A stretch of 64,000 bases of DNA from Tubulanus polymorphus. Taxonomy: Eukaryota > Animalia > Nemertea. The position numbers and the translations under genes are program-made. The stretch's first letter is position 1, and every line of letters starts with the position of its first letter. This document shows positions 11,583 through 37,800 of this stretch, one piece after another. The stretch lies in NCBI RefSeq assembly GCF_964204645.1, contig NC_134034.1, forward strand, positions 7,576,962-7,640,961. Reading direction: 5' to 3'. The notes under the pieces are model-generated. The model was not told the origin of the DNA, did no database searches, and saw only the letters and a list, made by a program, of their open reading frames with translations.

Positions 11583-11614
11583 TTATTATATAAATTTTTA
11601 TTAAAATTAAAATT

Positions 11615-12713: not shown

Positions 12714-12756
12714 TTATATAATAAAAAAATTAATAATGTATTAATTCTTGTAATAA

Positions 12757-13400
12757 TTACGGTTTTCTGTTACATCACAGAAAACCCTATTGAGATTCGC
12801 GTGTTTCTTCTTATTATTATTTTATGTCACACTATTTTCACTAAAAGAACTAAGGCTTTGTTACCTTGCCGTTGTTGTCGATACAATCCGTATGATATCG
12901 TTCAGCTCACTGAGATCTACAAATACCCCGCGTCTTTTTTCACGAATCATCGTTACAAAAGCACTGTCGAGCCGTAAACATCGAAAATTTAGCCCCATTC
13001 GATGGGGCGACATGTTTTTCGAGTCGTCATCCCGAAATCAACCCGATAGTCGCTTCGATTATCAATTCAAGTATAAATGAACTAATTTATTGCCACAGAC
13101 TTCACATTCAGCCGCGGTCTTCAAAATGTAATTTTAACAATAGCCCATTTTCTTCATCAAATCATATTACCGATACACTGGAAATTTACTACTTAAGATT
13201 TTAAAAGCACTTTCGAGCCGTAAACATCAACGAATCGACGTGTGTCACTACATCGTCGTTCCGGGGATCAGCTGCGAGTTTCTCCTCATCATGAGAATCA
13301 AATCGAGTACAAATTAATTTGTTACTACCAGTGATTTGGCTGCGGGTTTCAAGGAGTTAGTTTAACAATACCTATTTTTCTTTACCAAATTAACCGTGTA
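12757..13400. mobile_element. Non-autonomous repeat (Helentron/HINE-like) truncating copy A
   Basis: Subterminal hairpin ggttttctg-ttacatca-cagaaaacc, short tta microsatellite, internal repeat aaaagcact.tcgagccgtaaacatc about 248 bp apart; right end uncertain. Confidence 0.4.
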
Positions 13401-14676: not shown

Positions 14677-14867
14677 TACTAGGTTAAGCGTTCGCTGTGG
14701 GGGAAATGAGATCGTTCGCCGTGTCACTTAAAGTGTTTATCGAGTTTTACGCGACCTTAAGGCTTTAGTATGGTGGCTGATAAGGGCCATGCGTAAAAAA
14801 ACACTAATATGCAAATGAGGGCGACATTATGACATAAACGACAAAACTAAAATAATGCGACAAAACA

Positions 14868-15245
14868 ATAATTTTGGTTTTGTCGCCCGCGACAATTCAA
14901 TATTTTGGTTTTGTCGCCTGTGACAATTCAATATTTTGGTTTTATCGCCAGCGACAATTCATTATTTTGGTTTTATCGCCCGCGACAACTCATTATTTTG
15001 GTTTTATCGCCAGCGACAATTCATTAGTTTGGTTTTGTCACCCGCGACAATTCAATATTTTGGTTTTGTCGCCCGCGACAATTCATGATTATGGTTTTAT
15101 CGCCCGCGACAATTTATTTTTTTGGTTTTGTCGCTCGCGACAATTCAATACTTTGGTTTTATCGCCAGCGAAAATTCGATTATTTTGGTTTTATCGCCCG
15201 CGACAATTGATTATTTTGGTTTTATCGCCCGCGACAATTGATTAT
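14868..15245. repeat. Minisatellite, ~32-33-bp unit, ~11-12 copies
   Basis: ttttggtttt(g/a)tcgcccgcgacaattc units with an internal palindrome. Confidence 0.9.
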
Positions 15246-15401
15246 TCATATTTATGTCGTTTTTATGAGTCGTCATATTTATGTCGATATATCGCGATAT
15301 ATCGTGTCAAGTCGCCATGAATATGTCGACATATCGTGACGTTTTGACGACATATTTCGTTTTCACGACCATTTTCCTCGCGACAACTCATTCGTCATAT
15401 T

Positions 15402-15890: not shown

Positions 15891-16458
15891 GTGATATATC
15901 GCGATTCATCGACATAATTAAGTCAATATATCGTGTTAATATCACGATAAATCGTTATACGGATCACGCCTTTCACCAATGTCGACATCTGTATCTCAAT
16001 ATCCGCGTACCGTCGACATAATTATCACTCCTTTAGCTAAAATGTCGTGATACGTATGGCAATTTATTGAGACAATATCGCAAAAAGTCGACATAAAAAT
16101 CACGACATTTTAAATAAGGTCTTCCTAGTAACATCGATATATTGAGATAGTTAACCTAATTTCAATAAGGGGACGCATCGTTAATGATGTTTAATGTTAG
16201 ATGAATATGAAAGAAGAAATGAAGTTGGCAGAAAAATGAAAATGACTTTATCATCACCAGAATCTGGTGGACATATTGAATGATGGGGCTCAAGTAGAAT
16301 GACCCCAAATGCTGGGGCACAATATAGTGTTCGGTACATGGTCGATGAACTAAATAGGTAATTCGCATCAATACTTTGTCACAATTGATTTGCGGTATAT
16401 TTTGGATTTCTGTGTATGTCATTTGTCAGGACATTAAACAGTAGACGACTTTGGATAC

Positions 16459-17268
16459 TATTATGGAGACTTTGATGAAATAATTAATGAAAATATTAGC
16501 TTCCAAGTAGATCTATGAAATTATATCAACAAGCCTTTAGGAAACACATTAGTAGGTTTCAGTTGTCAGCATTTAAACAAAATCAACAAGTAATATACAG
16601 AAGCGGGAGTTCATGGCCAGCAGTGCAGTTACCAGACAACCTGCCTGGATATGTACGTCGTACATAAACATAAATAGAAATTATATAAATAAACAAGTCT
16701 GGAAGTGACGTATGTGTCAACGTAGGAAGAGCTAATATGGTCCGGTTATGCGCTCCGTTGAGTGCGGAAATATATTTATAGAAAATTATGACGTGTGCAG
16801 ATACGTCAGCGCCCATACATGGATGGAAGGAATGTTGTGACGTATAAATACGTCACAAGCAATGAATTCCAAGCCATGTGTGGAAGAGGACCTGCACACG
16901 TTAAAGTTATATAAATAGGGAGGAATGTTGTGACGTATAAATACATCACAAGCAATGAATTCCAAGCCATGTATAGAAGAGCTCCGGCACCGGTTATACA
17001 AGAGAAAGTTAGATAAATAAGGGGGTTTTTAGTAAGCACGGGAGTTGAGCTCCGGGGAAGAATCTGTAAACAACGAGTTAAGAGATAATAAACGAATATA
17101 TAATGTAAGAAGTAGTTAAGTTATATACGGGAGCCAAAGTCAAGAACTGGGAAGAAAGACCTGGCCTAAAGACAGATCCTGCACGACATCGCTGGTAGAG
17201 AAACGCAACCATAACAGTGGTAGAGATCACAACAGAAGCGGACAACTTCAAAATTCAACGCCACAACA
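16459..17268 (+). repeat. 5' LTR
   Basis: Direct repeat of 26643-27452; starts TATTATGG, ends CCACAACA. Confidence 0.96.
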
Positions 17269-17269
17269 C

Positions 17270-17288
17270 TGGTGGAGAATAGCGGCAG
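17270..17288 (+). promoter_or_regulatory. Primer binding site, tRNA-Ala-like
   Basis: tggtggagaatagcggca 1 nt after the LTR; resembles the complement of a tRNA-Ala 3' end. Confidence 0.7.
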
Positions 17289-17289
17289 G

Positions 17290-17893
17290 ATTCCGGTCTC
17301 GCAGCCAAGCTTGTGGCCAAACAGTAGACAATTTCGCAGACGATGTTAAACGGAGAGCGAATGAATTGGAATGACCTGCACACGTGACGCTAAGTACGTT
17401 TATTGATGGTCTCTCCGCGGACATACGCAAAATTGTTTGGACGCAGATGCCAGAGGATCTGGACAAAGCCATCAAAATGGCTAGTAACGTAGTCCAGATG
17501 ATGAAAATGGATGGCCCTGGTATTCATCAAATCGAAACGGCCAACGCGGGGATGGACGAACTAAAAGAAAGAATTAATCAACTAGAGATTAGACAACGAA
17601 AGGGGGAGACGGTGGCACAGGAAAATCAAACTTTTACGGGAATACAACAACCATTTGGAGCGATGACATACGCGCGAAATGGAGCTACAAACAGTAGATT
17701 CCGTTACCCTACGTTTAGAGGGCGATGTTACAGGTGTAATATAATTGGACATATGGCTAGAAATTGCAGGGGACCTGCGAAATCCACTTTTGCAACGGAA
17801 AATAGAAACATCATTTGTTATCAATGTGGTTTACCTGGACATGTTAGCAGATATTGCCGTCGGAATACGAATCGACAACAACGGACTAATTAG
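17290..17893 (+). pseudogene. gag: Gag, N-terminally deleted, two CCHC zinc knuckles
   Basis: Capsid CTD-like SQACGQTVDNF...TFIDGL; CYRCNIIGHMARNC and CYQCGLPGHVSRYC; in-frame TGA at 17372. Confidence 0.85.
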
Positions 17894-20800
17894 GACTGGA
17901 GCAAGGATGGCTTAGGGCAGCTATCCAGAGCTATACAAACAGATAATGCCCAAGTATTGTATGAGGTAGGATCGGGGATATCAGGGGATAGTGGGCGCTC
18001 ACAGACAAAATTGAAATCTCACACACAAAAATTGACAAAAAAGAAAATTTTGAAAGAAAAACCAAAAGTTTTATGCTCTGAGCACCCGCTATCCTTGAAT
18101 TGTGTTATTTTTGATGAACAGATGGATGTTTTAATTGATACAGGAGCAACTCGAAGTGTCATATCGTATGAATACTTTTTAAAATTAAGATCCACGGTAT
18201 TAGTTACACCGTTAGAATATGGCGGTTATAAATATGCTACAATAGCTGATGGGGGTACATTAGAAATATTCGGTATTGTTAAATTAAATCTTAAAATGGA
18301 ATCAAGGGTTGTTCAGCAAGAATTTCTAATATTAAGGAAATTGGCTCACCCGTGTATTCTAGGCATGGATTTCATTAACAGTCAGGGTGTGGTTATTGAC
18401 ACTCCGAGAAAGCTCCTACATCTGTCATCCGGTCACTCAATACCTCTTCGCGAGGGGGCAAAGGTACAATTACGAATTTGTATAGTAGCTAACGATACGG
18501 TCACAATTCTGCCTGGTGCCCAGGTGCAGATAAAAGCAAAAATGAAGGGGACGGGAAGAAAAGACGGTGTAGGTTTTGTTCAACAGTCCGCAAGATTATG
18601 GGATAAAAATGGTATTATGGGTGCGGCTAGTATATCTAATATTAAAAGTGGGGTATTACCTGTACAAGTTTGTAATCCGTCAAAATTCTCAAAACGATTA
18701 AAAAAGGGTGCCATTTTGGGAGATGTTACTCTCATCGATTTAGATGCCCCTATCGCAGACAGGTCATATATGACGATTGATAGTGAAGGTATTTCTACGC
18801 CTCGACCTAAAAATCAAAACGATATATCAGATAGTGTGGAAACGGGAGACATATCGGTACAGCAAAAAGCTGATTTAAAATCATTATTGGAAGAATACAG
18901 AGATAGGTTTGCAGAAGGAATATTGGAGTTAGGAACCGCAAAGGGGGTTGAGTGCAATATTGAAACTGAAAATGAGGTGCCTATTCGGTCACGACCATAT
19001 CGGGTGCCATTAGCGTTGAGGGATATTCTAGATAAGCAGATTGATGAACTTAAAAAGCAAGGCGTTATTGAAGATTCAAATTCAAATTATAGTTCCCCTG
19101 CACTTTTGGTTCCGAAACCAGATGGGTCATATCGTTTGTGTATTGATTTTAGGCGATTAAATAAGGTATTAAAATTGCAAACGTTACATCCAATACCTCA
19201 TATCTTTGACACTTTAACTATGTGTGGTACCGCTAGGCCAAAAATATTTTCTTCTCTAGATTTAAGAAGTGGTTATTTTCAGATTCCGATTTCACAAGAG
19301 TCTCGTCACAAAACGGCGTTTGTAACGCCTACTGGTAATTACCAATTTACTAGATTGCCCATGGGCATAGCATCGGCCCCTAGTATTTTTCAATCCATCA
19401 TGGCTCGTCTCTTACATTCATTAGGGGACTCTGTTTTGGTTTATTTAGATGACCTTTTAGTATTTTCTACATGTTGGGAGGACCACTTACAACATTTACG
19501 TCAACTTTTTGAAAGATTACGGGTGGCGGGTTTGACACTTAAACCCAGCAAATGTTTTATTGCTCGACCAAACTGTAAGTTTTTGGGTTTCTATTTAGAC
19601 GGGGATGGCATTAGAACTAATCTCGAGAAAGTAAATGTTATTCGAAACTGCCCTGTGCCTACAAATCAAACTCAGGTTCGGTCCTTCCTAGGGGCTGCTA
19701 ATTTCTATAGAAAATTCATTAAGAACTTTTCGGGGCGAGCACGACCATTGACACTATTGACAAGAAAGGGTATACCATTTCTATGGTCTGACGATTGTCA
19801 AAAAGCATTTGATGACTTGAAACAGGCACTTATAACGGCACCCGTGTTAGCGTATCCTTCTCTGGAACGCAAGTTCAAGGTTCACTGCGACGCATCGAAT
19901 TTTGCGATGGGATATTGTCTTGTACAGGAAGGAGACGATGGTCAAGAACACGTAATTGCATACGGTGGACGAGCGCTAACAAAACAAGAACAAGCATATT
20001 CAGCTAGTGAGCGGGAGTGTCTGGCACTAATTTCAGCCATTAAGTATTATAAAGTATACCTGTATGGAAATCCTTTTACGGTGGTCACAGATCATAAGGC
20101 ACTGTTGTGGTTAAAAAAGATGGAGGTCGATGGTCTCGCCTCAGGTCGGCTACAACGATGGTGCATCTTCCTACAAGGATACCAATATGATGTTGAGTAT
20201 CGGGCAGGAGTACAACATGCAGATGCGGATTTCTTGTCTAGATTAAGGTATCCAGAAATAGTGACTGTTGACACAGGTAACGACGGCGTCTTAGTGAATT
20301 TGCCCGTTGAACAACGTAAAGATGAAGAATTACGACCTATCATTAATTACCTATTAGACGGATCATTACCAAAAAATGATCATTTGGCACGAAGAATATT
20401 GTTGTCGCACGATAGGTATATTCTGGACATCGAGGGTAGACTTCAATACTTACAACATTTAAATCGTCGCCAATCTGTAGACTTCTCTCCCTGCTATGTG
20501 ATACCAAAACAACTTCGCTTACAAATACTGCAAGAAACACATGAGGTGTTTGGAGGACACAGTGGTGTGAAATCAACGTATATGCGTCTGAAAAATAGGT
20601 ATTATTGGAATGGTATGTTTTATGATGTAAAGGATTTCTGCTTACGATGTGATGTCTGTCAAAGAAAAGGCTTGTCTGCAAAAGAGGCTACTAAGGTTCC
20701 AATGCAAACGGTACGGGTGGAGCCAATTTTCCATAAATTTGCCATGGATATGGTGGGTCCCTTTCCGGTGTCTGACAAAGGGCATAAATATGTGTTGACA

Positions 20801-21961
20801 TGTATTGAAACTTTTTCATCATATATGGAGGCATTTCCGCTTAAGACGGCATCGGCAGAAGAGGTCGCCGAAAAATTGGTGGATGGTATCATTTTGAGAT
20901 ATGGGATGTTTTCTACTATACTTACCGATAATGGGTCGAACTTTATCTCAAAAGTCTTTCAACGAACGGCCATCCTTTTGGGGGGTAAAACAAAAACTAC
21001 GTCCTCATATCATCCACAGGCGAATGGTGCTTTAGAAGTACAGCATAAACAATTAAACAAATCAATAGCTAAGTTATTAGATGGACAAAGCCCGGGAAAG
21101 TGGGACTTATATCTGCAATCTGCAGTATTCGCAATGAATTCCTCAAATAATATCAATTCGACGTCATTCACGCCTTTTGAAATTGTTTTTGGGCGGATGC
21201 CTAAATTGCCCATGGAACTAGCCATATCAGCTCCAAAAAATGAATATGGGTCTCATGTGGCCTATTTTCAACATTTAATTAAAAAGATGGATATAGTACA
21301 TGACATAGTTCGCAAAAATCGAGAACTGAGCAAAATAAAAATGAAGCAGCAGTACGATAGAAATGCTAAAGATATTCAGTTTGAAGTAGGGAGTAAGGTT
21401 TTTCTTTATTACCCACATTTGCCTACTGGGGCATCAAAGAAATTACATTCATTTTGGCTGGGCCCATATGAAATTATTGAAAAAATAGGGGAGGTTAATT
21501 ACAGATTGAGGACGGATGATAATCGAAAGGTTAAAACATTAGTTCATGTAAATAGGTTGCGTCCGGTTTATGAATCTAAGAAACCGCCTACTTACAACTT
21601 ACCGCAAAATATTGAAAAATTAGATGACTTACCAGGGAACCTCGCCATGGATGAAATCGTTTTGCCCCATAAAGGTCGCCATGTCAAAATCGGCATGACG
21701 CCCGCAATTGAACCTCCTACTTTGACGCAGAGAGACATGACGTTATCAAAGGGTCGCGAAAATATTGACGGGAAAGACGAGTCGATATACACTGTGTCTC
21801 GAATACTCAAACATAGAAGACGGGGAGGCAGGTTGTATTATTATGTCGCTTGGGAGGGTTATGCGGATAAGACTTGGGAACCGGAGGAGAATTTCTTGGA
21901 TAGGTCGATCTTGACGGCATATCATCAGAAAGCCAAGAAAAGACGGAAACGACGTGCATAG
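17894..21961 (+). CDS. pol: Pol polyprotein: protease, RT, RNase H, integrase, chromodomain
   Basis: LIDTGA, YLDD, HCDAS/TDHKAL, HHCC, D,D(35)E, YYYVAWEGYADKTWEPEENF; intact ORF in frame with gag. Confidence 0.97.
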   Translation, partial: DWSKDGLGQLSRAIQTDNAQVLYEVGSGISGDSGRSQTKLKSHTQKLTKKKILKEKPKVLCSEHPLSLNCVIFDEQMDVLIDTGATRSVISYEYFLKLRSTVLVTPLEYGGYKYATIADGGTLEIFGIVKLNLKMESRVVQQEFLILRKLAHPCILGMDFINSQGVVIDTPRKLLHLSSGHSIPLREGAKVQLRICIVANDTVTILPGAQVQIKAKMKGTGRKDGVGFVQQSARLWDKNGIMGAASISNIKSGVLPVQVCNPSKFSKRLKKGAILGDVTLIDLDAPIADRSYMTIDSEGISTPRPKNQNDISDSVETGDISVQQKADLKSLLEEYRDRFAEGILELGTAKGVECNIETENEVPIRSRPYRVPLALRDILDKQIDELKKQGVIEDSNSNYSSPALLVPKPDGSYRLCIDFRRLNKVLKLQTLHPIPHIFDTLTMCGTARPKIFSSLDLRSGYFQIPISQESRHKTAFVTPTGNYQFTRLPMGIASAPSIFQSIMARLLHSLGDSVLVYLDDLLVFSTCWEDHLQHLRQLFERLRVAGLTLKPSKCFIARPNCKFLGFYLDGDGIRTNLEKVNVIRNCPVPTNQTQVRSFLGAANFYRKFIKNFSGRARPLTLLTRKGIPFLWSDDCQKAFDDLKQALITAPVLAYPSLERKFKVHCDASNFAMGYCLVQEGDDGQEHVIAYGGRALTKQEQAYSASERECLALISAIKYYKVYLYGNPFTVVTDHKALLWLKKMEVDGLASGRLQRWCIFLQGYQYDVEYRAGVQHADADFLSRLRYPEIVTVDTGNDGVLVNLPVEQRKDEELRPIINYLLDGSLPKNDHLARRILLSHDRYILDIEGRLQYLQHLNRRQSVDFSPCYVIPKQLRLQILQETHEVFGGHSGVKSTYMRLKNRYYWNGMFYDVKDFCLRCDVCQRKGLSAKEATKVPMQTVRVEPIFHKFAMDMVGPFPVSDKGHKYVLTCIETFSSYMEAFPLKTASAEEVAEKLVDGIILRYGMFSTILTDNGSNFISKVFQRTAILLGGKTKTTSSYHPQANGALEVQHKQLNKSIAKLLDGQSPGKWDLYLQSAVFAMNSSNNINSTSFTPFEIVFGRMPKLPMELAISAPKNEYGSHVAYFQHLIKKMDIVHDIVRKNRELSKIKMKQQYDRNAKDIQFEVGSKVFLYYPHLPTGASKKLHSFWLGPYEIIEKIGEVNYRLRTDDNRKVKTLVHVNRLRPVYESKKPPTYNLPQNIEKLDDLPGNLAMDEIVLPHKGRHVKIGMTPAIEPPTLTQRDMTLSKGRENIDGKDESIYTVSRILKHRRRGGRLYYYVAWEGYADKTWEPEENFLDRSILTAYHQKAKKRRKRRA

Positions 21962-22023
21962 GATATTTGCCACGCACCCAATAGTTGTTGCGAAGTTAAT
22001 TAAGGATAATAACAGAAATAATT

Positions 22024-24531
22024 ATGAGTATAAAGTTGTTGTATTTTAAGAGATCGTTAGGAAATCGAGGAGTTATGATTTATATTGTTGTTTTAGGAAC
22101 CATGGTTCGGAGTATAGTTTATATCGTTATGATTTGGTCGTGGATAGGACCAATGGCTGCATGGGATGCAGAGCTACGGATGGGGGCTGGAGTAGTGTTC
22201 CAGCCAGTTGACGAGATAAATGTAGCAGCAACAAAATGGGAACATAGTGTTATGATTCCTTTAGTAGATGTTTCCCGGTTTTCGATGACAATTCCTAATA
22301 TGACGTGTGGAATGCCCAATGCCGAATGCCGACAAATAGAGAAAATGTTTCGCCTAATGCGTTTGCGTAAAATCCGAGCTGATCAAAAATTTAACAGTTC
22401 CAGGCGTATGATTGAATCATTATTACCTGTTGAAATTCCGAGTACAAGAAGAGAAGGCCGTATGAAACGAACACCACTATCATTCATCGGAGATGTCGCC
22501 AGTTTGATTTTTGGGGTCGCCACTACTGAGCAGTTACAAATAGTGGAAAGACATATGAATAAGTTTGATGCATTACACAAATTAGATCATAAAGCTATTG
22601 TCCAGTTACAAGAACGGTTAACTAGCTTTGCCAACGTAACAGATTCTAGATTTAAGTTAGTTAAGTCTCTAGTACGACAAAACAGAGATTATATGTCAAA
22701 ACTTTCGGAATTCGTTGTAAATAATACTATGAATCAGGCTCGTTTACAGGCAAGGGTACATGCACTATCATACGTAGTGCGGTATTCCATTAATTATGGG
22801 GATGTTATTGAGGCTATCAGCAGCCACATGGCCGCGTGGTTGCGCTCCACTAACGTTTTACTATCAAATAGACTACCTGTAGAGTTAATTCCGGTAACAA
22901 GTCTCCAGGAAATCTTATCAAAAATTCGCGTTACATTGAAGAATTTTTACCCCATGTTTGAGCTGGCACATCAAACCCCGAGTTATTATTATTCGCACGC
23001 GCGAACGTTTACTGTCAGGACTCGTGAATATATAGTGGTTCATATGCAGATCCCAATACAAGCAAAAAATACGCATTTTCGTTTGTATAATATATTATCT
23101 TTTCACCTTCCGGTTAATGCAACCGCTACGGTGTATACAAAAATAATTAACCTCCCACGCTTCTTTGGCGTTAGTAAGAATTTGCAAACTTACGTGTTGA
23201 TTGATGAAGCCACTTATTCGCTTTGCCAAGGACGTTATATACAGAATTGTGCAGATGGATTACCTATCTATACTCAAACACAAAAATCATGCGCGTCTGC
23301 ACTTTTCTTTGATAACCCTAAGGATCTAATTGGGCAGTGTGATCTGACATATACTTCCGTGGCGCCTCTGTCTCAGGCGGTCCTGTTGACAACCAATAAA
23401 TATTTGATATCTATTCACGACAAGCATGATGATTGGATTTCCCAATGTGGACTGGATCCACCAATTAGGGTTCCGGTCTGTAATTTTTGTGTTGTCACCT
23501 TGCAATGTCATTGTGGGTTGAATTCAAAATACTTTACGCTTTCGCCGACTTTAACAAATTGTGAAAAAGGTCATGATAGAATAACTCGATTATATCCCGT
23601 TAACATACCGGCGGCATTGCTTTTGGGTAAAGAGGATGATATTGATAATATGCAAACAGAGGTATTATATTCTAAAATTCCGCGTATCACACTGCCTGAT
23701 TTTAATATAGAGGGACATGAATGGGAAAATGTGATACGGGCTGAAAACGCTAAGGAAGCTGATTTTAAAAAATTGGCGCAGGCTATAGGCCGTGACAAGA
23801 TAGCGTATACAAGTAGGTCCGATTATTTGCGATCAGAAATTAGGGGGACACATAATTCTTTGAAAATCGGTGGTTATATTCTGATTTCGTTAGTAATTGT
23901 AACAATAATAGTATCGGCGGTTTTATGCAAACGATATAGGGCATGGGCGGCGGCAGGGACCGCTTTAACAATGGTTAAAAGTGTAGAGGCAGGGAATTTG
24001 GACATAGTTCACGAACAGTTAAATATTGATTTGTCTGCAATAGAAAAGGTATCAAATACTTTGTTGGATTGGGAAGCTATAGTAGAATGGGGTGTAGTGG
24101 GTATGGTCGTATACTCGACACTGCGATATTTCTTTACTGATGGGTGGCGGTTTATGAGTAGCCGTCGGTGGCAAGTATCACTTGCACTGTGTTCTTCTCC
24201 TAGGCTATCAGCGGAGATCTTAGCTGAGCTATATAATAATGATGGTGCGTCGGCTGTTTTACATTTGGGTTTTGTATCTCCCCATTTATGGGAGGAAGTC
24301 AGATCTATTCAAAATTTGGCGGTTATTCAGTTAAAAACATACGGTCCATTAGTTATTATCACTGTTAAATATAGCGAGGATATCACTTGTGCAAAAAGTT
24401 TGATTAAAAAAATTTACGCCAGTCGGCTTTTTAATAAGCCACTGAATCGATTGTGTAATGGTGAATTTTCTACACACTTTTGGATGGTGCATCGTCGTGA
24501 TGCAGTATTGTTGAATGAGGACCTCCCATAA
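22024..24531 (+). CDS. env: Envelope glycoprotein, class I fusion (F-like)
   Basis: Signal-like hydrophobic N-terminus, RMKR furin-type site then fusion peptide TPLSFIGDVASLIFGVAT, heptad region, Cys-rich ectodomain, TM YILISLVIVTIIVSAVLC. Confidence 0.88.
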   Translation: MSIKLLYFKRSLGNRGVMIYIVVLGTMVRSIVYIVMIWSWIGPMAAWDAELRMGAGVVFQPVDEINVAATKWEHSVMIPLVDVSRFSMTIPNMTCGMPNAECRQIEKMFRLMRLRKIRADQKFNSSRRMIESLLPVEIPSTRREGRMKRTPLSFIGDVASLIFGVATTEQLQIVERHMNKFDALHKLDHKAIVQLQERLTSFANVTDSRFKLVKSLVRQNRDYMSKLSEFVVNNTMNQARLQARVHALSYVVRYSINYGDVIEAISSHMAAWLRSTNVLLSNRLPVELIPVTSLQEILSKIRVTLKNFYPMFELAHQTPSYYYSHARTFTVRTREYIVVHMQIPIQAKNTHFRLYNILSFHLPVNATATVYTKIINLPRFFGVSKNLQTYVLIDEATYSLCQGRYIQNCADGLPIYTQTQKSCASALFFDNPKDLIGQCDLTYTSVAPLSQAVLLTTNKYLISIHDKHDDWISQCGLDPPIRVPVCNFCVVTLQCHCGLNSKYFTLSPTLTNCEKGHDRITRLYPVNIPAALLLGKEDDIDNMQTEVLYSKIPRITLPDFNIEGHEWENVIRAENAKEADFKKLAQAIGRDKIAYTSRSDYLRSEIRGTHNSLKIGGYILISLVIVTIIVSAVLCKRYRAWAAAGTALTMVKSVEAGNLDIVHEQLNIDLSAIEKVSNTLLDWEAIVEWGVVGMVVYSTLRYFFTDGWRFMSSRRWQVSLALCSSPRLSAEILAELYNNDGASAVLHLGFVSPHLWEEVRSIQNLAVIQLKTYGPLVIITVKYSEDITCAKSLIKKIYASRLFNKPLNRLCNGEFSTHFWMVHRRDAVLLNEDLP

Positions 24532-25115
24532 ATACATGGCAGCTGGCCTGTCTAATTGCAACGACTCTCAGCCACAAATAGCAGTACACGTTATCCCTGC
24601 CTAGACTACGGATAAATGTGCTTTCTGAGGCAATAGGCGGGGACTAGCAGCTGACATCTCAACAATACGAATGTACGCGTACGGTATATTCATTTTTAGG
24701 TAAATTTCGGATCGACTTTGTAATAAGCGCTTATTAAAATTATTGTGAAATTAATCATGAAATTATTGTTGAACATGTCTGTTGCCAACATGTGCTGGGC
24801 ACACGATAATCAGCTAAATGATGTATCTGACATCTGTATTAATTTACGTCGTTGATTGGAGTCGGGACAGGTTGGGCGGACCATCTAAATATCGGTTAAG
24901 ATCGCAGCTGTGAGTTGATGAAAATAGGAGATACACGGGTTTGCGATAATAAGTCTAGACATAGAGAATGCGCTACTTACAACGGTTTTTGTTGTTGTTG
25001 TTAACGTATCGAGAACAAGGAATTTAAATATTATTATAAGGGTGATATTTATTTATTGTAATGGATATATAAAATAGAAAAAAATCGATGGGTATAATAT
25101 ATGATGTTTTTCTTT

Positions 25116-26315
25116 TTATTCTTCTTGCTCTGAAATAGTAAGGGGAATATTGTGTTTTATTGTGAGTTAAAATTATTTGTGCATGAATTTTAAATGAAAA
25201 CTATGGGGTTAACACTATATTGGATCGGAATGAAATTTGTGTGTATTATAATTAGATAATGTAGTATGTATAATTAAGAAGTGTTCTTACCAGATTCTGA
25301 TGAACTATAGCGGGGCGAAAAAGGAGAAAAAAGGGAAGCCAGCGAGGGAAGGTGACTGGAGAAACTATCGGAACTGTCCAAAGAAGGACTTGGCGGGGGT
25401 ATAGGATAGACAGGGACGCCAAGGGACGTTGGGGGATTAAGTGATAAATCAAGGAAAGGGACAGGACTGGATGAGGGGGTATTGGGATTAGAAGAGTCAC
25501 TACTGATGATTATAGGGTTGAGGGAGCATGCTGGATCGTCAGCAAAGGGCAGTAGACCTAAACCAGATGGTACAGGATCTACACCCCGACTTGCTGACGG
25601 GTTGGAAGGTCGGGAATAGGGATGGGGGCGAGTGGAGTGGCTGCTGGACTTCCCCTTTCCCTTTCCCTTTCCCTTATTCGTCCGAGGGTCAGATGAAGGT
25701 CCAGGAGTTTGAGCCCTGGGGGCACGTCCAGGGTCAGATGAGGCTGAAAGTTTGATTTAATTGACAATTGTGTATTTATTATAATTTGAAAGATTATAAT
25801 TATGTTAAAAATTGTCAATATTATTATTAAGCGAACTGTTACGAATTGGCAAGTGAAAAAAAAAAAAAAAAAAAAAAAATCAGTAAATGAATAAATTAAT
25901 ATTAGTTAAGTTCTATACCTGGATCCGATGCACTACTGTCATTGATTGCCCTCAGTATAATTGCCAGTAACCGATATCGGTTACCTAAATTGAAAATAAT
26001 ATTGTTACCCAATGGTTAAGAAAAAAAAAATTAAACTTGTAAAATTGATATCAGTAAATAATGAATGATGTTAGTACATAGTTTATTGGTCTTACCAGGC
26101 TGGGCGGCAATGAAACCGTACAGCATATTCAGTACCAAATAGGCTAAAATAAAAGAAAAAAAAAAAAGAAAAAAGAAGAGGAATAAAATAAATGATGGAT
26201 TCAAGATACATATTGTATTGAAAACAGAGTTAGGAATAAAGGTATAGAGATAGGACTTTAGGACTTAAAAAGAAGAGATATAGTGTTGCTTACCGAAGAA
26301 GTCAACGGAATTCAT
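25116..26315 (-). CDS. Predicted five-exon antisense accessory gene (~200 aa, Ser/Pro-rich, KG repeat)
   Basis: Exons 26315-26294, 26143-26096, 25984-25919, 25743-25291, 25129-25116; all introns GT-AG and phase 1; no internal stop. Confidence 0.7.
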
Positions 26316-26628
26316 AGTAAATCCTTTAAGTGTAAAATTTGCGTGTTCGTTGGATGAAGAATTGTGTGTTATACTGACTAAAAGATTTTTGGGGTCGTAC
26401 TTCTTGGTTATGAAGTATGTATATTTTTAGCAGAGATTGTGTTGAGGAAAATGACATTATGTTTTATTGCTTTACGGTTGAGTTCAAGAGAAAATGAATG
26501 TTGTATTCGTTTATTGTGTACTGATGATGTTTGGTATTGGCAGCTGATACCTGGCGTTTTAACATCAATTTTAGGGGTCTTCTGAAAATTCGGACTGCAT
26601 TAATTTTGTCGTTTGAGGGCAAACGACC

Positions 26629-26640
26629 TGGGCCGGGGGA
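26629..26640 (+). promoter_or_regulatory. Polypurine tract
   Basis: gggccggggga immediately before the 3' LTR. Confidence 0.65.
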
Positions 26641-26642
26641 TA

Positions 26643-27452
26643 TATTATGGAGACTTTGATGAAATAATTAATGAAAATATTAGCTTCCAAGTAGATCTAT
26701 GAAATTATATCAACAAGCCTTTAGGAAACACATTAGTAGGTTTCAGTTGTCAGCATTTAAACAAAATCAACAAGTAATATACAGAAGCGGGAGTTCATGG
26801 CCAGCAGTGCAGTTACCAGACAACCTGCCTGGATATGTACGTCGTACATAAACATAAATAGAAATTATATAAATAAACAAGTCTGGAAGTGACGTATGTG
26901 TCAACGTAGGAAGAGCTAATATGGTCCGGTTATGCGCTCCGTTGAGTGCGGAAATATATTTATAGAAAATTATGACGTGTGCAGATACGTCAGCGCCCAT
27001 ACATGGATGGAAGGAATGTTGTGACGTATAAATACGTCACAAGCAATGAATTCCAAGCCATGTGTGGAAGAGGACCTGCACACGTTAAAGTTATATAAAT
27101 AGGGAGGAATGTTGTGACGTATAAATACATCACAAGCAATGAATTCCAAGCCATGTATAGAAGAGCTCCGGCACCGGTTATACAAGAGAAAGTTAGATAA
27201 ATAAGGGGGTTTTTAGTAAGCACGGGAGTTGAGCTCCGGGGAAGAATCTGTAAACAACGAGTTAAAAGATAATAAACGAATATATAATGTAAGAAGTAGT
27301 TAAGTTATATACGGGAGCCAAAGTCAAGAACTGGGAAGAAAGACCTGGCCTAAAGACAGATCCTGCACGACATCGCTGGTAGAGAAACGCAACCATAACA
27401 GTGGTAGAGATCACAACAGAAGCGGACAACTTCAAAATTCAACGCCACAACA
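26643..27452 (+). repeat. 3' LTR
   Basis: Direct repeat of the 5' LTR, followed by TSD ATAC. Confidence 0.96.
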
Positions 27453-28648
27453 ATACTACCTAGCGTGACTCCACTAGTTAGACCGACTTATTCCAAGATG
27501 AGGCGTTCCGTTGATTTTGGCTATAAGTTTTCGTTCAGAGATAACTGCTGAGCCACTTGGGCATATCATTGATACTGTTTCCTAATAGCCTGTTTAGTTA
27601 GTAATGGCTGATGTTGTGCCTTATCAAATGCTTTGTCGAAATCCACCGATGAACAGGATTCTAAGACAGCAGAAAACCCGTTATAGCTGCTTTGTTCTTC
27701 AACTGTTATATTACCATTTAAACTTATTATATAATCTAATGTATTTTTTAATTTATTAATTTCTTTTATATTAGATTTTATTTTTTCTTTATAACTTTTT
27801 ATATTTAATTTTGAACTCATTGCCGGTTAATACACTGGAACTTAAACCTAAAGCTCCAATTGAGATAGCTAAAGGTGTTAATGGTGAGAATAATGCTAGA
27901 AATGTTATTACAGAACTAATTGTAACTGAACTACTAATAATAAAATAATATATAATTTTACATTTTAAATTATTTTTTCTTTTTAACTTTTAAATCATTT
28001 TCAAATTATAATATTTGTTTTTCCAAATATAATTTTAATTTAGTTTTATTTATATCATGAGGAATAATATCAATATTATCAACTTTATCATCCATTTATT
28101 TAGAAAAGATATTACTAGTTAGTAAATTTATAAGCAACAAATATTACAATAACTGTTCCTCCTAAAATCCAAATTATTTCATATTTTTGTTTTTCACTAC
28201 TTGGTGTATAATAATCTGATAATTTAGGTTTATATAGATGTAATTTATCTCTTTATTTGTTACTGCGTTATATAAACTCATAGCTTCATCAACTGATTGA
28301 AAATCTCTGTGTAATTTTCTGATTATATAATTCTTTATTAAGATAATCCATATAATTTTGTCTCTTTTCTCTATATTCTTCTGCAGCTTTATTATATTTT
28401 TCTAATGCTAAGTTATGTCTTCTTTGTTCTGCTAATGAACTATTTTTATCAATATGCTTATCGATATTATAATTCCATTTGATGAATTAACGAACAAAAA
28501 GAAACAAAGAGAGCTAGATGAAGTGGATGATGTGGAATAATATAGAACTTCATTTAAATGAGAAAAATGAAATGGAAGAACCTAAACAATTAAATGATAA
28601 TGAAGAAGCCAATAGTGATTTCGAGTATGGTGATATTGATTTTCTTTT

Positions 28649-31600
28649 TTAATGGCCATAAGGTAATGTTTTTATTCCATCACCCGAAATATATCTTTTA
28701 TCATCGAACGGATTTAAACTAGTTTTATCAACTTCATTAATGTACATCTCGTGATCTTCTGATCTTAAACAATTCATTTTATGTTTCATTACAATTGAGT
28801 AATATAAACACTTTATATAATCTTGAAATTCTATGTGTTTATCAACCACATGTTTTGTTATTCCTTTTAACTTTATAGCTTCATGATCTTTTGTTCTATA
28901 ACTATACATTTTACTTCTCATCCCAACAAATTCAATCATTTCATCGCCCCCTAATTCATCTTTAAATTTACCAGGAATTTTTTTATTATCATTGCTAAAT
29001 AGTTCATGATCTTTTGGATAATTGCTAAAGTCAAAATGATGTTTTAATGTTTTTAAATCTTTTGTTATGTCATTTGTCTTGATTTTTAGTATGTAACTGT
29101 CAGTATTCTTTAGGAATAATGAAAATCCACAATTAAATATACCAACTTCAGTTGTTAAAACATTAACATATTCTATAGGATTGTATATTTCAAATAAAAC
29201 TTTAACTTCTTCTGTTAGTTCATTTTCTACATGCGTTAATTGAAATACATTTGGTTTTTCCTTTCTAATATTAACTAACATATTAAATCCTAATGAATTG
29301 CATAATATATTTAATCCTGATATAGCAACTTTTCCTTTTTGTGTCAAAGATATAGTTTTCTGTTTTGTATAGTTTTTTGAACCATCTGCAGCATAGAATC
29401 CAATGAAGAACCATTTTCTTAAATTATCTTTTGCATTTAATACATAATCTGGTACTATCTTTTCTTTAGTTGAAGCATTACTTTTAACTATTGCATGAAT
29501 ATAGAATTCATCATTATATTTAATTGCAAAATCTTATTTACATGTATTCTATAAACTGCTGATGATTTCATAACATGTATGATTTTAAATGTTTTATTTG
29601 GATAAACTTCTTTACAGTATTTCTTTATTCTTTCTAATAATTTCAAATCTTGATTGCATAAACACCAACAATATTGAGTTTGATTAACATACTTATACAC
29701 ACCTGCTGAACCATCACGCATAAAAAATCATTTAATAAAATATTCTTTTTCTTCTAATGTTTCAGGTTCTGTGTTATAAATATTATAAATTATTTCATCA
29801 AATGACATATGATCCATTCTTTGGAAAAATATTTTATGTAATAATTCATCTCCAATTTTTATATCAGTTGGTTTTATTTCATCACTATTTTGTTTAATAT
29901 AACTATGATCTTCAGTAACATCAACGAATCCTAGTTTGGTTCTAACTCTATAGATTTTCTTATTTGTTTTATGCCTAATAATATTCTTTAATTTCTTCCA
30001 TCCATTTCTTGTCCAAGCATCCATTAATCCCTTTATTTGTATTAATTCTTTTTCACCATATGAAATATAAAGTTCATTTTGTTTTGGAATTATTTCTGAA
30101 ATTCTTCTTATCAATATTTGGTTATTGTATTTTGATTATATTGGGGTATCAGCTGTTACAGAATCAAAATATAATATTTCAATATGTTTTTCCCCAAAAA
30201 GTGGTTGTAAAACATTATAATAAAAATCATACATTAATAATTTTGATATTCCTAAAACAGTTGAACCAATGAATATAGGTTTATTAAATTTCATTGACGT
30301 TCTTTTTAAATTTACCGCTGTTTAATAATCTTCAAATCTTTTATTTCCTAAATGTCTAAGACTTGATTGTAAATGTCTCAATCGTTCAGAATTATTTACT
30401 AATTCAATATCATTTCTATTTCTAATATTTTCACATGTTTTTCCATAAAAAGTATTATTCATTAATTTAAAGAAATCTTCTTCAAAATCTGTTTTTGATA
30501 CGGTCCTCTGTTGAGTATCAAAATCTATATATTTCTCTAACCACTTCGATTGATTAAATTCAATATATCTATGTACTTTCTTTAATTTCATTCCTTGTTT
30601 TAGATAAAATTTAAACATTCTATAATGAACAATATAATTGTATTTATTATTTTGAGTAAGTATTAATTTTTCTGTAAAAACATGATCTTTCGGTTTTTAT
30701 TTTATTCTGGTATTCACTTAAATAACTATCATCTACGGCTAAATGTCCTGGGCAATATGGTAAGTTTCTTGTTTTAAACTTAATGTTATCAGTATATTCT
30801 AAATCAACTACAAAGAAATAACCAATTGGTGCTTCATCTTCTAAACTCATAATTGCGCTTTCCCAATTAGTTTTATCATCATTTTCAACTTCTGTTAATA
30901 TAAAATTTTTATATGGTTGGTTGCATCATTTCCCAACCATATAAATTATTAGCGTCAATATATAATAATTTATATTCATCATTTGCTTTAAAATACCTAT
31001 CTCCCATAACACCACTAATTCCACCTCTAATTGATTTTTTAAATAATAAAACCATGTCTGGTTCTTTTAATAAATCTAATTCTACATTTGTATATTTTAA
31101 ACCACATTGCCAGGTTAAACCAGGACTTGAATAACAATAACAGGGATCAACATTAAAATGATTCAAATTAAATTCTCTAAATTTTTCAAATATATCAGCC
31201 AATATCATAAAATCTGATTTTAAATATAAATCTACTAATTCACCATGATTTTTTATCTTAAAATGATTCCAAATATTTAATGTTCTATTAAACACTTCAT
31301 CTTTCACATACTCCTCTTTTAATTGATCATAAAATTGTTCTTTTAATAATTCTGTTACATAAAAATCATCATGTGTTTTATAAAATGAATAAGGAATTGC
31401 ACCTTTAAATCTCAATAATTTAAACTCTTCATTTGGATAATAATGTCGAGTTATTATAAAATCAACTAAACTTTTTGCTAAATTATCTAATGAACTTGCT
31501 AAAAATCTATAAGAATCTAAAAATCTAATGCAACCAAATTGAAATTAAATTTGATTTTCAGATGTCTTAGCTAATAGTTCAAAATCATATTTTCTTACAT

Positions 31601-33711
31601 TTGCGCCATTCATAGCATTATATTCTTCTATTTCTTGATTAATTGCGCCCAATTTTCCTGATAATTGTTTTATAAATAGATGGGTGTCATAGCCTGATAA
31701 ATTATGAAATAATATTGGTACGAAATTAACTTTCTTAGCTTGTAAATTGCAATCTTCATGAGCAGCTACACGATATTTTGAATTTAAATGATCATGATCT
31801 CTAACTTTTTTTTATCAAATGAATGAAAACGTTTTTCACAGTAACAACAATGAGTTGCATAATTAAAATCAATTTCATCTTCTTTTGTCATAACTATTCT
31901 TTTATTTTTGTTTGATAATTTTGCAAAATCATTTTCTATTTCAATTATTTTATTATAAAATTCAATTACTACATATTCACCTCTAAAAGAAATATATTGA
32001 CTTTCATATGATTCAAACTAATTTGATTTTATATAAATTCCATAAGCAGCAGCTCTTTGATGAACTTTTTTAATTGTATTTATAATTGGTGGTCTTGAAT
32101 TATGTCTTCATTTAATTCATTTCGTTTGTCCATTGATTTTAGAAATTGCTTTTTGTTATATATTTCTTTTCTATCTTGATCAGTAAATTCTTTATTCAAC
32201 GTTTCAAAATCTCCAAATCCAAATAAATTACAAATGGTACTATTTATTTAAATTTTCGATTAATAAATTTCAACTTACAACCTTTTTTGTTGGCATTATT
32301 ATTTTGCAAAAATCTTTATTATCACGTAATTCTTTATGTTTTAATAATGCATTCTCAGTCATAGATTTAGATAAACATTTTCTACATAGATAAATTTTAT
32401 CATGATGATCACTTTCTGTTCTAAAGAAAAAATCATTTGTTTTAACCACATATAATGTTCATTTTTATCTTTTTTTGTAATATAACAAATCTACAACATT
32501 TTCGTAATCATCATAATATTCTGTTAAATATAAAGCTTCTAATGTATAATCTTATAATGTATAATTTTCACCTTTTGTCTCTGGTAATTGCATTTATTCG
32601 AAAACATTAATTTTTAAATTATTAACTTTTTCTATTTTAGGAATCATGTTTATAGTTACTGGATATTGATCAATTTTATATAATGTTTCATATTTCCGGT
32701 AATCTCTTATTCTAAAACTATGCGTAATATCTTCTGTTGGTGTAAACAACTAATAATTGACCATAGAAAACATTTATTATCTTCATTTTGAGCATGTATT
32801 ACTGCTTTTGTTGAAAATGGTAATTTAATATAAGATGATGCTTTTATATCCTTTTCTGTTGTAAAGTTTGAATCATTTTTAAACATTTTATTACTTTTTG
32901 ATGTTTTATTTCTCTTTGTATTATAAATATTTAAATCTAAAAATATAATTTCATTCAATGTTAAACCAGAACCCTCAAAATATCTTTCCTCAATATGACG
33001 TTTAAATTCATTAAATACTTTTTCTAACTTCTCTTTTATTTGTGTTTTTGAAATTATTTCTTCAGAGTGTGTTTGAATATTGTAATCCATTTTTACTTCT
33101 GATTTGATAAAACTTACTTTTCGAGAAATACTATGGATATTCAACATCTGTTACAAAATCTATTATTTTTTCCATGATTTCAATAAATTTACTATAGTCT
33201 TCTATTGTTGCTCCTTTAAAAAATCTAAATATAATAGCTGCAGGCCCAATTTTACTACGTAATGTTTCTAAAATTTCAATTGTATCTTTTATTTCTAGTG
33301 AATCAATATAATTTCTAACATTTTCCATATAAGGTTTATTTGAAATAGATTTAGTTTTTGAAACTGGTTTTTTTACTTGTTCAAGTTTATCATCAAAATA
33401 TTCTGTTCCTAAAATATTTTTATTCAAATTTTGTTTGTGTTTGTGTAATTCGAGATGTCTTTTATAATTCCTTTTTGCTATAAATTCATTACAAACATTA
33501 CATTTAATTTGATCCTTTTTCATATTTTCTAATTGTTCTTTTCTTTCATTGGAATTTTCTGGTGTCTCAAAATCTATAACATTTTTTGTATAATTTGCAG
33601 TTTCTTCATGTCGTGCTTTATGAGATTTATCAATGTATTTTTTGCAATATGTACAATAATATTGATTTTCATTAACATCAATTTTTCTGTATGTTGTTCA
33701 CTCTCTCCCAT
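28649..33711 (-). pseudogene. pPolB with intein, many stops and frameshifts
   Basis: YIDANNLYG, LMNNTFYGKT, YFD-[insert]-TDSY, PGKFKDE motifs. Confidence 0.9.
29105..30162 (-). mobile_element. Intein with LAGLIDADG homing endonuclease (~350 codons), degraded
   Basis: Starts SVTADTPI after YFD; block B VDVTEDHS; FFMRDGS and FFIGFYAADGS; ends FLKN followed by TDS. Confidence 0.92.
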
Positions 33712-34413
33712 TTATTAGGAAAAAAATTACTTGTGGTGATGAGTGGTGTGTCGCCCTCTCGCCCTCTGGTATGAAACCCTGATATTCCAATTACTAACAT
33801 TTACATTTCATGAAACTATAAAACTTCATCCCAATGCGCAATTCAGTGGCGTATATTTCCTTGACCCACTCCCTCACGAAAAACCGAATCCCTTGCCCGC
33901 TTTGTACGAATTTAATTTCGGTTTGACATCGGTTTTCGTGATATTAAATACGATGCCACATCTGTGAGACACACAGGAGGCCACCTGTATATGCCCTCCG
34001 CCTCCGACAACCACTCATAATTAGCTCCGATTAATGGATCGGCGAAGTAAATGCCATCCAATGAAAGGAAGCTCTTTTTTCTCAGTTCTGCTTTATCTAA
34101 AGCAGTTTCGACAGGCTGAATGCCGAATTCCGCAGCTGCAAAAGGGATTCGACCCTAAACATCAAAACGTAACGGCTCCGTAGAGGTTTGTAAAAGCCGT
34201 ATTGTGCTGCCATGTAGCGGCAACAACCCCGCTGTACACGATTAAACCAAGATGACGCGACGATCGAAATCGACTGACGCTTCGTTTGTTTTTGGCTCTG
34301 GTTTATATGTGAGGTGTATTTGACGGAACCAATCGCTATTTGAAAATGATGTATACACATTGTTGTTATTGACATATCTTGGAAAAGATGAGTGAGTGTA
34401 TAAAATGCTTACT

Positions 34414-34838: not shown

Positions 34839-37800
34839 ATGGAAGCAAGTACTACTGTTCACCATGTAATATCAATATAGATAAATCCCAAAAATCAAGA
34901 CACAATAAAACTAAAACACATTTAGAGAATAAATTGAAATTAGAATATGAAGATGATATATTAGAAACTAAATTAGATGAATTAAAGAATGAAAAAGAAA
35001 CATACAAATGTGATACATGTAATCAATCATTCAGTGATAAAAGATATTATAAAGAACATTTAAAATCTAAAAGTCATATTAGAAATAAGGATAATGATAT
35101 TTTAGGTGAAGATTATTTTGATAAAGATAATGATAAGAAACAGAAGACAATTAAAAGTATAAACAAGAAAATTAATTTTAGAAAATTATTTGACGCCTGG
35201 GAAAAAAATGTAGAATTTCTGGGCTAAGCTAATGTGGAATTGCAAATTTGAAATCGAAGTTTTAAGAAATTTGGGGAATGATGAGATTTGGCGATTTGGT
35301 AGATGATACAGGTCTTCGACTCTAGTAGTGGTTTAAATTTTTTTATTGAAAATTCTCAATAATTGATCGCGAACTTGCGACCGACTTCATTTACTTATGC
35401 CTCTAAGCTGGTCTGCAACTTCATAGCCTCCATGGATGAAGAAAGAGCTCCTCTGATGTCTGCTTCATCATGACTTCGATCATATCGTGTGGCCTAGCCA
35501 GCCGGCCCGGTCCCCGGGCCCGGGCCACGGGTTTGGCTGTCACTCGATATCCTAGAGTCTTGAGTCTGGGTGGGTTGAAGTAGACATTGTCATTTAAAAT
35601 AACATGCTTATGTTGTTCTGTATGAATTACCCGTGTGTCATGTATGTTGTATTAATTTATTTTAAAATTTGTATTTATTGAATTTGGGAATTTTATCCCG
35701 GAATTTCAATGTAATAAGGATCAATAAAGAATTGAATTGAATTGTCACCTAATACACATGCCATCAGAGGACACGGAGCCGTATAAGACAGCTATGCTAT
35801 TATAAATTGCTAATCTCACGAAACTTGCATACTCCTAATATCAAACATATTTTCACAAACGATTGAATATTGAAATTATATGTTTACACATTTTCATATT
35901 GACCGCTTGTAGCCGCTGATGAAATTCACGCCGGCCCTACACACATCGTAGATAGCTTCGTCATTCCACCGGCATGCCCACGTCAGGGTCTGACTTTTAT
36001 ATCAGACTTCCGCATCGTGTATACATCCGCCATTTAACCGAATAATCCGATTTACTTATCATTTCTATTTATGCCTGCCGCTTCTGATACAATCATACAT
36101 CCTTTACTATTACAATACGTCTTCTAATGATATTCAATGCAATATAACATTTCGACGTTCAAATATAGGTCATTATATAATCACAGGAAGCCATTCTACA
36201 TCTATGTCAATAATATTTTGCCAGATAGCTTGTTTGTGTACACATAAACCTGTGACGTTTTGCACATCGATTTACGGCTGTCGTTTGTAAAATGACGCTG
36301 AATGGTAAGCATTGTTTAGGTTTCATAATGGTAACGTTTTATAAGGCGTCAAAAAATAAATTTAACAATAAAAGACCATACATGGAAGATGTAAGAAAAT
36401 ATAGTAATTTATTGGATAATAAAAAAGATATAGAGATAACCGAAGCATTTAAAAGTGATATTGGCCCAGCAGCTATCGAGTTTAAATTTCATAAAGGAAA
36501 AACGTTAGAAGAAAATAAAAAACATTTAGAAAATATGAAAGAAATAATGAAAATAATAACTGATGTTGAATATCCTAAAATAAGTATTTCATCAAAATTT
36601 AAATTCATAAAATCTGAAGATAAACCAATATATAATATAAATTCTCATTCACAACATATTATATCTAAACAACATATAGATGATAAATTAGATAAATGTT
36701 ATAATGAAGTAAAAACTAAAATAGAAGAGAAATATTTTGAAGGATCTGGTTTAATATTTGATGAAATAATATTTATGACTTTACATGTTTATAACACAAA
36801 ATATAATAAGTTAACTAAATCAAAACCCATAGATGAAAATAATGTATCATATTATAAAGAACCAGATATTGAAGCATCGAGTTATATTAAACTACCATTT
36901 AAAACTAATGCTGTTATAAATGTACAAAATGAAGATGATAAATGTTTTCTATGGGCTATAATTAGTTGCTTACATCCTGCAACTGATAATATTTGTAGAT
37001 TAACTCATTATAAACCATTTGAAAATAATTATAAGATAGATAAGTATCCTGTTAGAATTAAAAATATCCAAAAAATAGAAAGAGATAATAATATAAAGAT
37101 AAATGTATTTTATTTAATCAAATTACCAAATACAAAAGGTAACAATATAAAACATTATACATTAGACCCTTTATATCTATCAAAAGATTATGATTCAAAT
37201 GGTGTTATAGATATATTATATTATGAGAATCATTATATGTGGATTAAAAGAATTGATTCATTTTTTAAATCAGAAAATTATTTTGATAATAAAATATATC
37301 TATGTAGAAAATGTTTACATAAATTCAGAACTGAAAGTGCATTATTAAATCATAAACAATTATGTGAAAATCATGATTATTGTAAATTAGTTTTACCAAA
37401 TGAAAAGGATAAAATATTAGAATTCAAAAAATATGATTACAAAAATAAAGTACCATTTGTAATATATGGAGATTTCGAATCATTAAATAAAGAATTAACT
37501 GATCAAGATAGAAAAGAAATATATTATAAAAGAAAGAAATTAAATTCTAATGAAAATGATTTTTCAGATGAACCACCAATAACAAATACTATTAAAAAGA
37601 TTCATCAATCAGCTGCAGCTTTCGGGTTATATATTAAATCTGATTATCCAGAACTAATTAAAAGTGAATATTATCATTACAGAAATGAAAATGTTATCAA
37701 TCATTTTTGTGACTTATTTATTGAATATGAAATAAGATTTAGTAAATTATTGAATAAAAATATAGAAATTATAATGACAGAAGAAGATAAAGAAGAATTT

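Follow-up and report, generated by a model that had tools for sequence, protein, structure and literature searches.

The question raised by this locus is whether the apparently non-coding DNA between the env gene and the 3' LTR of an invertebrate retroelement conceals a gene. The window, the whole 64,000-nucleotide stretch of Tubulanus polymorphus DNA that was analyzed, contains an LTR retroelement spanning positions 16459-27452. A sequence-only reading of this DNA had placed a five-exon gene antisense within the element and likened it to HBZ of HTLV-1. We regard the gene as real with high confidence. As judged from the element and from diverged copies of it, the gene is very likely spliced, under selection, protein-coding, and an integral part of the element. 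The element is composed of the following parts:

16455..16458 (left) and 27453-27456 (right), no strand: 4-bp target-site duplication
16459..17268, plus strand: 5' LTR, 810 bp, with one mismatch to the 3' LTR
17270..17287, plus strand: primer-binding site, beginning TGG
17375..17893, plus strand: gag remnant with two zinc knuckles; its 5' part is absent, with a stop at 17372-17374
17894..21961, plus strand: pol, encoding protease, reverse transcriptase (RT), RNase H, integrase, and a C-terminal chromodomain, in the same frame as gag and behind a TAG
22000..24531, plus strand: F-type env-like ORF, 843 codons from stop to stop
26630..26642, plus strand: polypurine tract
26643..27452, plus strand: 3' LTR, 810 bp

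The LTR pair, primer-binding site, polypurine tract, and target-site duplication are those of a Ty3/gypsy LTR retrotransposon, and pol has the corresponding domain order PR-RT-RH-IN, with the chromodomain (PF00385, E 2.3e-9) lying C-terminal to the integrase. The primer-binding site is presumably tRNA-Ala-like. LTRs that differ at a single base, together with the 4-bp target duplication, indicate a recent insertion. Because gag is 5'-truncated and has an in-frame stop, this copy is likely non-autonomous. The primer-binding site is followed almost directly by mid-gag sequence, the LTRs are one base apart, and pol and env are both open; lacking a Gag of its own, the copy likely moved recently with a helper Gag. 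The gag and pol sequences share one frame and are parted by a single TAG (17891-17896), suggesting stop-codon readthrough. The LTR begins with TA instead of TG and ends with CA. With pol and env open and gag broken, this copy falls outside the errantiviruses sensu Chary & Hayashi, whose inclusion rule is an intact gag-pol-env.

The ORF behind pol contains a basic furin-like site, a hydrophobic stretch resembling a fusion peptide, and a transmembrane-like stretch, and two homologs share 48% and 32% identity with it. One of these homologs (P0002) matches the Baculo_F profile at E 2.2e-4, below the curated cut-off. The Atlas neighbors of env fall in Baculo_F, Gypsy-env, and paramyxovirus-F (Fusion_gly) clusters at 0.90-0.93, with Baculo_F reaching up to 0.93. 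The weak profile match of the homolog and the Atlas clusters thus identify the ORF as an F-type env, the type of env expected of errantiviruses, in keeping with the env named in the sequence-only reading. The ORF of the window itself has no Pfam match, its predicted structure is of low confidence (pLDDT 37.6), and env searches returned neither a PDB match nor a locus in viral contigs or metagenomes. In env and both homologs (23900-24531), a second hydrophobic segment and a conserved C-terminal domain of ~130 residues lie behind the transmembrane-like stretch, a long domain that is unusual for the tail of an F-type env. The RT had no match in viral contigs. A metagenome search with the integrase gave five loci at 30-36% identity, in which tblastn detected neither env nor the antisense gene, and an integrase protein search at the strict cut-off of E 1e-60 gave 0/4020.

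The element is flanked by decayed Polinton-like DNA. Decayed, AT-rich Polinton/Maverick-like copies occur in both orientations at ~2000-13000, 28000-34000, and 36000-52000, and include a protein-primed polymerase B with intein/LAGLIDADG pieces (28649-31544) as well as A32 ATPase, integrase, capsid-like, and GDSL-lipase-like ORFs recognized by weak Pfam matches. A tandem array with a 31-bp period (14806-15271) lies ~1.2 kb to the left of the element, and at 57742-60624 lie the decayed gag and protease remains of a second Ty3/gypsy element, which include a long acidic insert.

Exon-intron structure of the antisense gene

On the minus strand between env and the 3' LTR, four GT-AG introns, all in phase 1, define an open frame of 200 codons followed by TAA (603 nt). 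The features of this strand are:

26581-26551, minus strand: possible upstream exon, untranslated or in frame, with a weak donor
26324, minus strand: possible acceptor, which would start exon 1 at 26323
26315-26294, minus strand: exon 1, coding part, 22 nt, with the ATG at 26315-26313
26143-26096, minus strand: exon 2, 48 nt, encoding a hydrophobic predicted helix ending in Gln-Pro
25984-25919, minus strand: exon 3, 66 nt, encoding a predicted amphipathic helix
25743-25291, minus strand: exon 4, 453 nt, encoding a Lys/Gly-rich basic run, R-x2-PY (codons 65-88), and an acidic Ser/Pro-rich tail
25129-25116, minus strand: exon 5, 14 nt, ending in the stop and recognized by sequence signals only
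25048..25057, minus strand: two overlapping AATAAA words, the likely poly(A) signal of the antisense gene

Recomputation reproduced the five exon coordinates, the four phase-1 introns, and the frame of ~200 amino acids given in the sequence-only reading, along with the AATAAA words it had seen at the stop and near 25050, which lie on the minus strand at 25120, 25057, and 25053. The possible 5' exon that it had proposed at 26581-26551 fares less evenly: the acceptor is good, the donor is off consensus at +4 to +6, and the intron that follows has no branch-like word. Positions 26551-26570 of this candidate exon are aligned in two diverged contigs. The frame lies antisense between pol/env and the 3' LTR, the arrangement termed aORF-3R, and the 64-kb window contains no second copy of the region.

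The introns measure 150, 111, 175, and 161 nt and are 74-82% A+T (18-26% G+C). Exons 1-4 have 41-53% G+C and coincide with GC-rich islands, and the internal exons (48, 66, and 453 nt) are each a multiple of three. Such a pattern could in principle arise with no gene at all, from chance splice-like words in an AT-rich spacer around a GC-rich cis element. Donor-like words are not enriched on the coding strand (5 minus versus 7 plus), no RNA run among the public runs was found to contain the element, and the conserved blocks could be cis signals. Shuffle and shift nulls argue against chance, as does conservation that tracks exon borders and codon positions. The exon-intron GC step of 0.28 is reached by 3/1230 circular shifts of the exon mask, all of them at most 2 nt from the true register, and the step computed without exon 4 is reached by 3/777. 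Exon 4 is open in one frame of six, and a fully open frame appears in 37/2000 shuffles. A simple splice-chain search, with patterns composed after the sites had been seen and an acceptor rule that missed acceptor 2, recovers a 3-intron, 178-codon chain on the minus strand and a 1-intron, 34-codon chain on the plus strand. The same search yields at most one intron in 500 dinucleotide and 500 block shuffles. Across the window, chains of at least three introns occur in 1/124 tiles, the tile that holds the antisense gene. That the region contains no gene is therefore extremely improbable.

Contigs from public runs X2 and X3 cross donor 4 and acceptor 3 unspliced. They carry an added inverted piece of 11-12 nt at a GATC site (25534-25538), which resembles a proximity-ligation adapter. 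Since these contigs look like DNA libraries, their unspliced crossing carries no information on splicing.

Conservation in diverged copies

Relatives of the element were available as diverged DNA copies, present as contigs in public runs X1-X3 of one study; a fourth run, X4, possibly of RNA, gave no contigs and weighs neither for nor against splicing. These contigs cover the exons in part, and up to 30 letters past each aligned part were also compared. The sequence-only reading had named splice-site and frame conservation and dN/dS among relatives as a check on the gene, and these hold for the sites and fragments covered, apart from one frameshifted fragment. Among the matches listed, four of the eight splice sites are kept in diverged copies, namely donor 1, acceptor 1, donor 3, and acceptor 3; diverged coverage does not extend to donor 2, acceptor 2, acceptor 4, or exon 5, and donor 4 is covered by near-identical copies only. 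Exon 1 with donor 1 is covered by at least five X1 contigs. Among the best 40 of 59 rows, exon 1 shows a single synonymous substitution and two replacements, Asp to Glu and Asn to Asp, and the ATG and the donor-1 GT are unchanged in diverged contigs.

Five distinct loose ends of the contigs reach exons (among the best 18 of 23 rows); four are in frame and one is shifted. At 26198, the intron is shorter and its pyrimidine tract differs in sequence and length, but its AG directly precedes the same first four residues of exon 2, one of which has a synonymous codon. The loose end at 25930 covers the 3' half of exon 3, which aligns colinearly without a stop; its donor is kept next to an intron with a 5-nt gap, and Ile33, Leu34, Ala36, and Ile37 of the hydrophobic face are retained, two through synonymous codons. 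Ten codons are colinear at 25624, where all three changes are synonymous, including that in the Arg of R-x2-PY. Ten codons are likewise colinear at 25702, open and still basic, with 7/10 residues changed. The loose end at 25727 (X1 record 6) apparently lacks one base at 25726 and would thereby run out of frame into a stop. Either this copy has decayed, the reading we favor, or retention of the frame is not universal; the result counts as negative evidence.

The four in-frame ends give a dN/dS of 0.30 (pS 0.54, pN 0.24, Fisher p 0.004; Nei-Gojobori), counted by hand over 37 codons pooled from different contigs, with the frameshifted end and four adapter-like X2/X3 loose-end rows left out. By codon position, the tally for third positions is 18/37 (p 0.04), and all 14 distinct indels listed in 25030-26640 lie outside exons. 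Constraint is uneven along the frame: pN is 0.40 in codons 60-69, and the Ser/Pro part changes fast, with 3/4 of the changes listed in codons 96-101 altering residues. In one diverged contig, exon-4 sequence is linked to exon 1 and to an LTR-like piece of 30 nt, suggesting that the gene travels with the element family.

These data bear on two further explanations. In one, a host gene fragment was captured in reverse, is carried passively, and is now decaying. Reverse orientation offers a captured gene a way to keep its introns, the introns here are host-like in being short with poly-T tracts, and the window copy is itself defective in gag. No host homolog appeared among the proteins searched, and because splice sites and frame are kept where introns have diverged beyond alignment, this explanation would still need selection after capture; passive carriage is very unlikely. 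In the other, the transcript rather than the protein matters: spliced antisense RNA would dampen the element by way of dsRNA or small RNAs, and the reading frame would be a by-product. Non-coding antisense RNAs are described from micropia and others in the accessible part of a review (PMC7264820), one relative is apparently frameshifted, and no protein homologs were found. The excess of synonymous change, the uniform phase with three internal exons in multiples of three, and the placement of the listed indels outside exons count against a by-product. In addition, the antisense unit ends before env, so its RNA would pair only with the 3' untranslated part. A role for the RNA alone is likewise improbable.

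The predicted protein and its possible role

The predicted protein of 200 residues has three parts. Residues 1-45 are neutral and comprise a weak hydrophobic stretch, a Gln-Pro-Gly-Asn turn, and an amphipathic helix, forming a predicted helix-turn-helix start. Residues 46-100 are basic (11 K/R, 2 D/E, 44% S/P/T), and residues 101-200 are acidic with 48% Ser/Pro/Thr. In exon 4, a Phe-Leu-Asp-Leu-Ser stretch at ~25459-25439 (minus strand), beyond the reach of the diverged copies, resembles PxDLS, the motif through which viral and cellular repressors bind CtBP. A transmembrane or FAST-like N-terminus was considered and ruled out by crude hydropathy (peak 1.54, Hessa sum +4.9). Codons 65-88 match the basic PY-NLS pattern of PMC2408616, as do 185/10000 residue shuffles; in the accessible part of that study, 11/20 fragments predicted by the pattern bound the receptor. 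A relative keeps the R-x2-PY core in its basic region, and its last Lys lies 6 residues before the Arg, compared with 2-5 in the strict pattern.

Homolog searches were run exon by exon. For the exon-4 frame, none of 249 candidates was a homolog and there was no usable Atlas match. Three matches of this frame among 1.84 billion representatives were set aside as compositional, all being long repeat proteins. The frames of exons 2, 3, and 4 have no Pfam match, which includes no bZIP, TRP28 (PF04195), or SMC, and those of exons 2 and 3 have no PDB sequence match, a search with little power for 21-residue pieces. Exon-frame searches thus found no homolog, domain, or fold that would back a role in transcription.

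Three signals of the element enter the discussion of function:

26890, 26973, 26987, 27022, 27034, 27115: CRE-like hexamers in the 3' LTR
26964, minus strand: TATA-like word in the 3' LTR
24540..24900, plus strand: long predicted RNA stem-loop behind the env stop (z -3.25, reached by 0/100 shuffles)

The six CRE-like hexamers compare with a shuffle mean of 0.36, and 0/2000 shuffles reach six. They lie partly within a 79-nt direct repeat whose palindromic core surrounds a TATA-like word. The 3' LTR is likely the promoter of the antisense gene, as we infer from these words. Given a real gene, we lean toward the view that its product is a nuclear regulator. The best overall explanation, drawn by analogy with HBZ, is a spliced antisense gene whose predicted nuclear protein regulates transcription from its own LTR, and we give this full account about an even chance. 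Under this model, the CRE-rich 3' LTR would fire backwards, and the RNA would be spliced and polyadenylated near 25050. The introns would persist through replication, being antisense relative to the plus-strand genomic RNA; survival of such introns through reverse transcription is an established principle, which the sequence-only reading had invoked correctly. The basic PY-type signal would carry the protein into the nucleus, the N-terminal helical hairpin may dimerize or dock on a host factor, with co-regulators perhaps recruited by the acidic Ser/Pro tail. The protein would then tune transcription from the LTR or protect it, acting in cis or serving sister copies in trans. Five plus-strand AATAAA words lie inside the antisense introns (25890, 26148, 26182, 26187, and 26235). 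The genomic RNA must read through them, and that they could cut it short is a point against the nuclear-regulator account.

A real gene could instead encode a protein that acts on RNA or particles, either in Rev/Rex-like export or packaging of unspliced genomic RNA through the stem-loop, or by helping the pre-integration complex to enter the nucleus. The Lys/Gly-rich basic run suits such a protein. The structured 360-nt segment at 24540-24900 is common to sister copies, and since diverged contigs pile up there, it may act on the genomic RNA as a conserved cis element. The segment has no Rfam match, and no Arg-rich RNA-binding motif of the Rev type is apparent in the protein. Moreover, Rev and Rex are sense-strand genes. 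Help with nuclear import has been proposed for plant antisense ORFs in the accessible part of PMC7264820. On balance, action on RNA or particles is unlikely.

The N-terminal 40 residues might also mimic the DPY-30/PKA-RII docking-dimerization domain and so hijack COMPASS-type histone methylation or AKAP-PKA-CREB signaling for LTR activity. At the level of residues, the N-terminus appears, to our eye, similar to DPY-30/RIIa domains. It consists of a 17-residue hydrophobic stretch, a Pro23 cap, a turn of four residues, and a second helix that is amphipathic (moment 0.76) and whose hydrophobic-face residues are kept in a relative; the LTR has CRE-like words. By predicted spacing, this anatomy of ~40 residues, with a helix, a Pro-capped short turn, and an amphipathic helix, fits the description in the accessible part of PMC12203939. 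The fit is inexact, with the Pro 2-3 residues earlier than in the described 8+17 layout, and such spacing is found in any two-helix hairpin. Exons 2 and 3 scanned singly, as underpowered 21-residue pieces, match these domains in neither Pfam nor PDB. Mimicry of this domain is distinctly unlikely. An equally low estimate attaches to its extension, in which the errantivirus would be an independent "complex retrovirus" whose nuclear DPY-30/PKA-RII mimic steers histone-methylation or cAMP-CREB machinery onto a CRE-rich LTR and thereby escapes silencing. On that view, annotation by ORF being blind to genes of this kind, an entire tier of retroelement accessory genes would have gone unnoticed.

Comparison with known systems

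Chromodomain-bearing "ancient errantiviruses" with F-type env are described from Cnidaria, Mollusca, and Annelida (Chary & Hayashi, eLife 2026, PMC13524379, in the part of the paper available). The element shares their gag-pol-env Ty3/gypsy layout, the chromodomain behind the integrase, and an F-type env with furin site and fusion peptide, a comparison made by layout. The main text of that paper, as available, has no mention of "antisense" or "accessory" and describes no fourth, spliced antisense gene.

Maize Grande (gene23), rice RIRE2, Retand (TRP28 ORFs), and Botrytis Boty (brtn) carry antisense ORFs in the interval from the coding region to the 3' LTR, according to the accessible parts of PMC7264820 and PMC11963269. 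The former describes GENE23 of Grande as nuclear and the function of the plant and fungal antisense ORFs as unknown, and calls for a search for spliced antisense transcripts. The gene described here shares with these ORFs the antisense orientation, the site before the 3' LTR, an orphan protein, and, in four of the five exon-overlapping fragments, a frame retained across copies. In contrast, the plant and fungal elements have no env described beside the antisense ORF in the texts available, whereas the present gene has an F-type env as its neighbor, in an element likely of animal origin. The TRP28 domain of the Retand ORFs is missing from the exon 2-4 frames. Boty brtn is reportedly a multi-exon gene. 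Ty3/gypsy elements of plants and fungi thus already provide examples of antisense extra genes before the 3' LTR, a point absent from the sequence-only reading, and the present case is the less novel for it. No animal precedent for such a gene was found in the literature searched, from which most subscription papers were absent, and the accessible parts of papers on Oikopleura Tor and bdelloid elements describe none.

HBZ and APH-2, -3, and -4 of deltaretroviruses are nuclear and act on CREB-family factors, as set out in the accessible part of PMC10186651. The same text has HBZ and APH driven from the 3' LTR, with CRE-type elements in the LTR. The gene shares with them the spliced antisense layout, ~200 codons, and a position near the 3' end, and differs in lying beside a Ty3/gypsy pol, in having no bZIP, and in showing no similarity in its exon frames. 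HBZ overlaps sense genes and has few exons, whereas the present gene occupies a non-overlapping 1.2-kb slot and has four short, host-like introns. The HBZ analogy of the sequence-only reading accordingly stands for position, strand, splice layout, and predicted nuclear import, and fails for bZIP and homology.

Invertebrate env-bearing Ty3/gypsy elements have been described as plain gag-pol-env, and this one would add an accessory gene of the kind found in complex retroviruses. Its spliced antisense form escapes ORF finders and transposon libraries. The gene also suggests a re-screen of the 1512 published errantivirus copies for spliced antisense genes. With exact junctions and a small protein of defined modules, the function of antisense extra genes becomes testable. 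What is likely new, on the sequence evidence, is a spliced antisense gene behind env in an invertebrate errantivirus-like element, a kind of gene known from plants, fungi, and deltaretroviruses.
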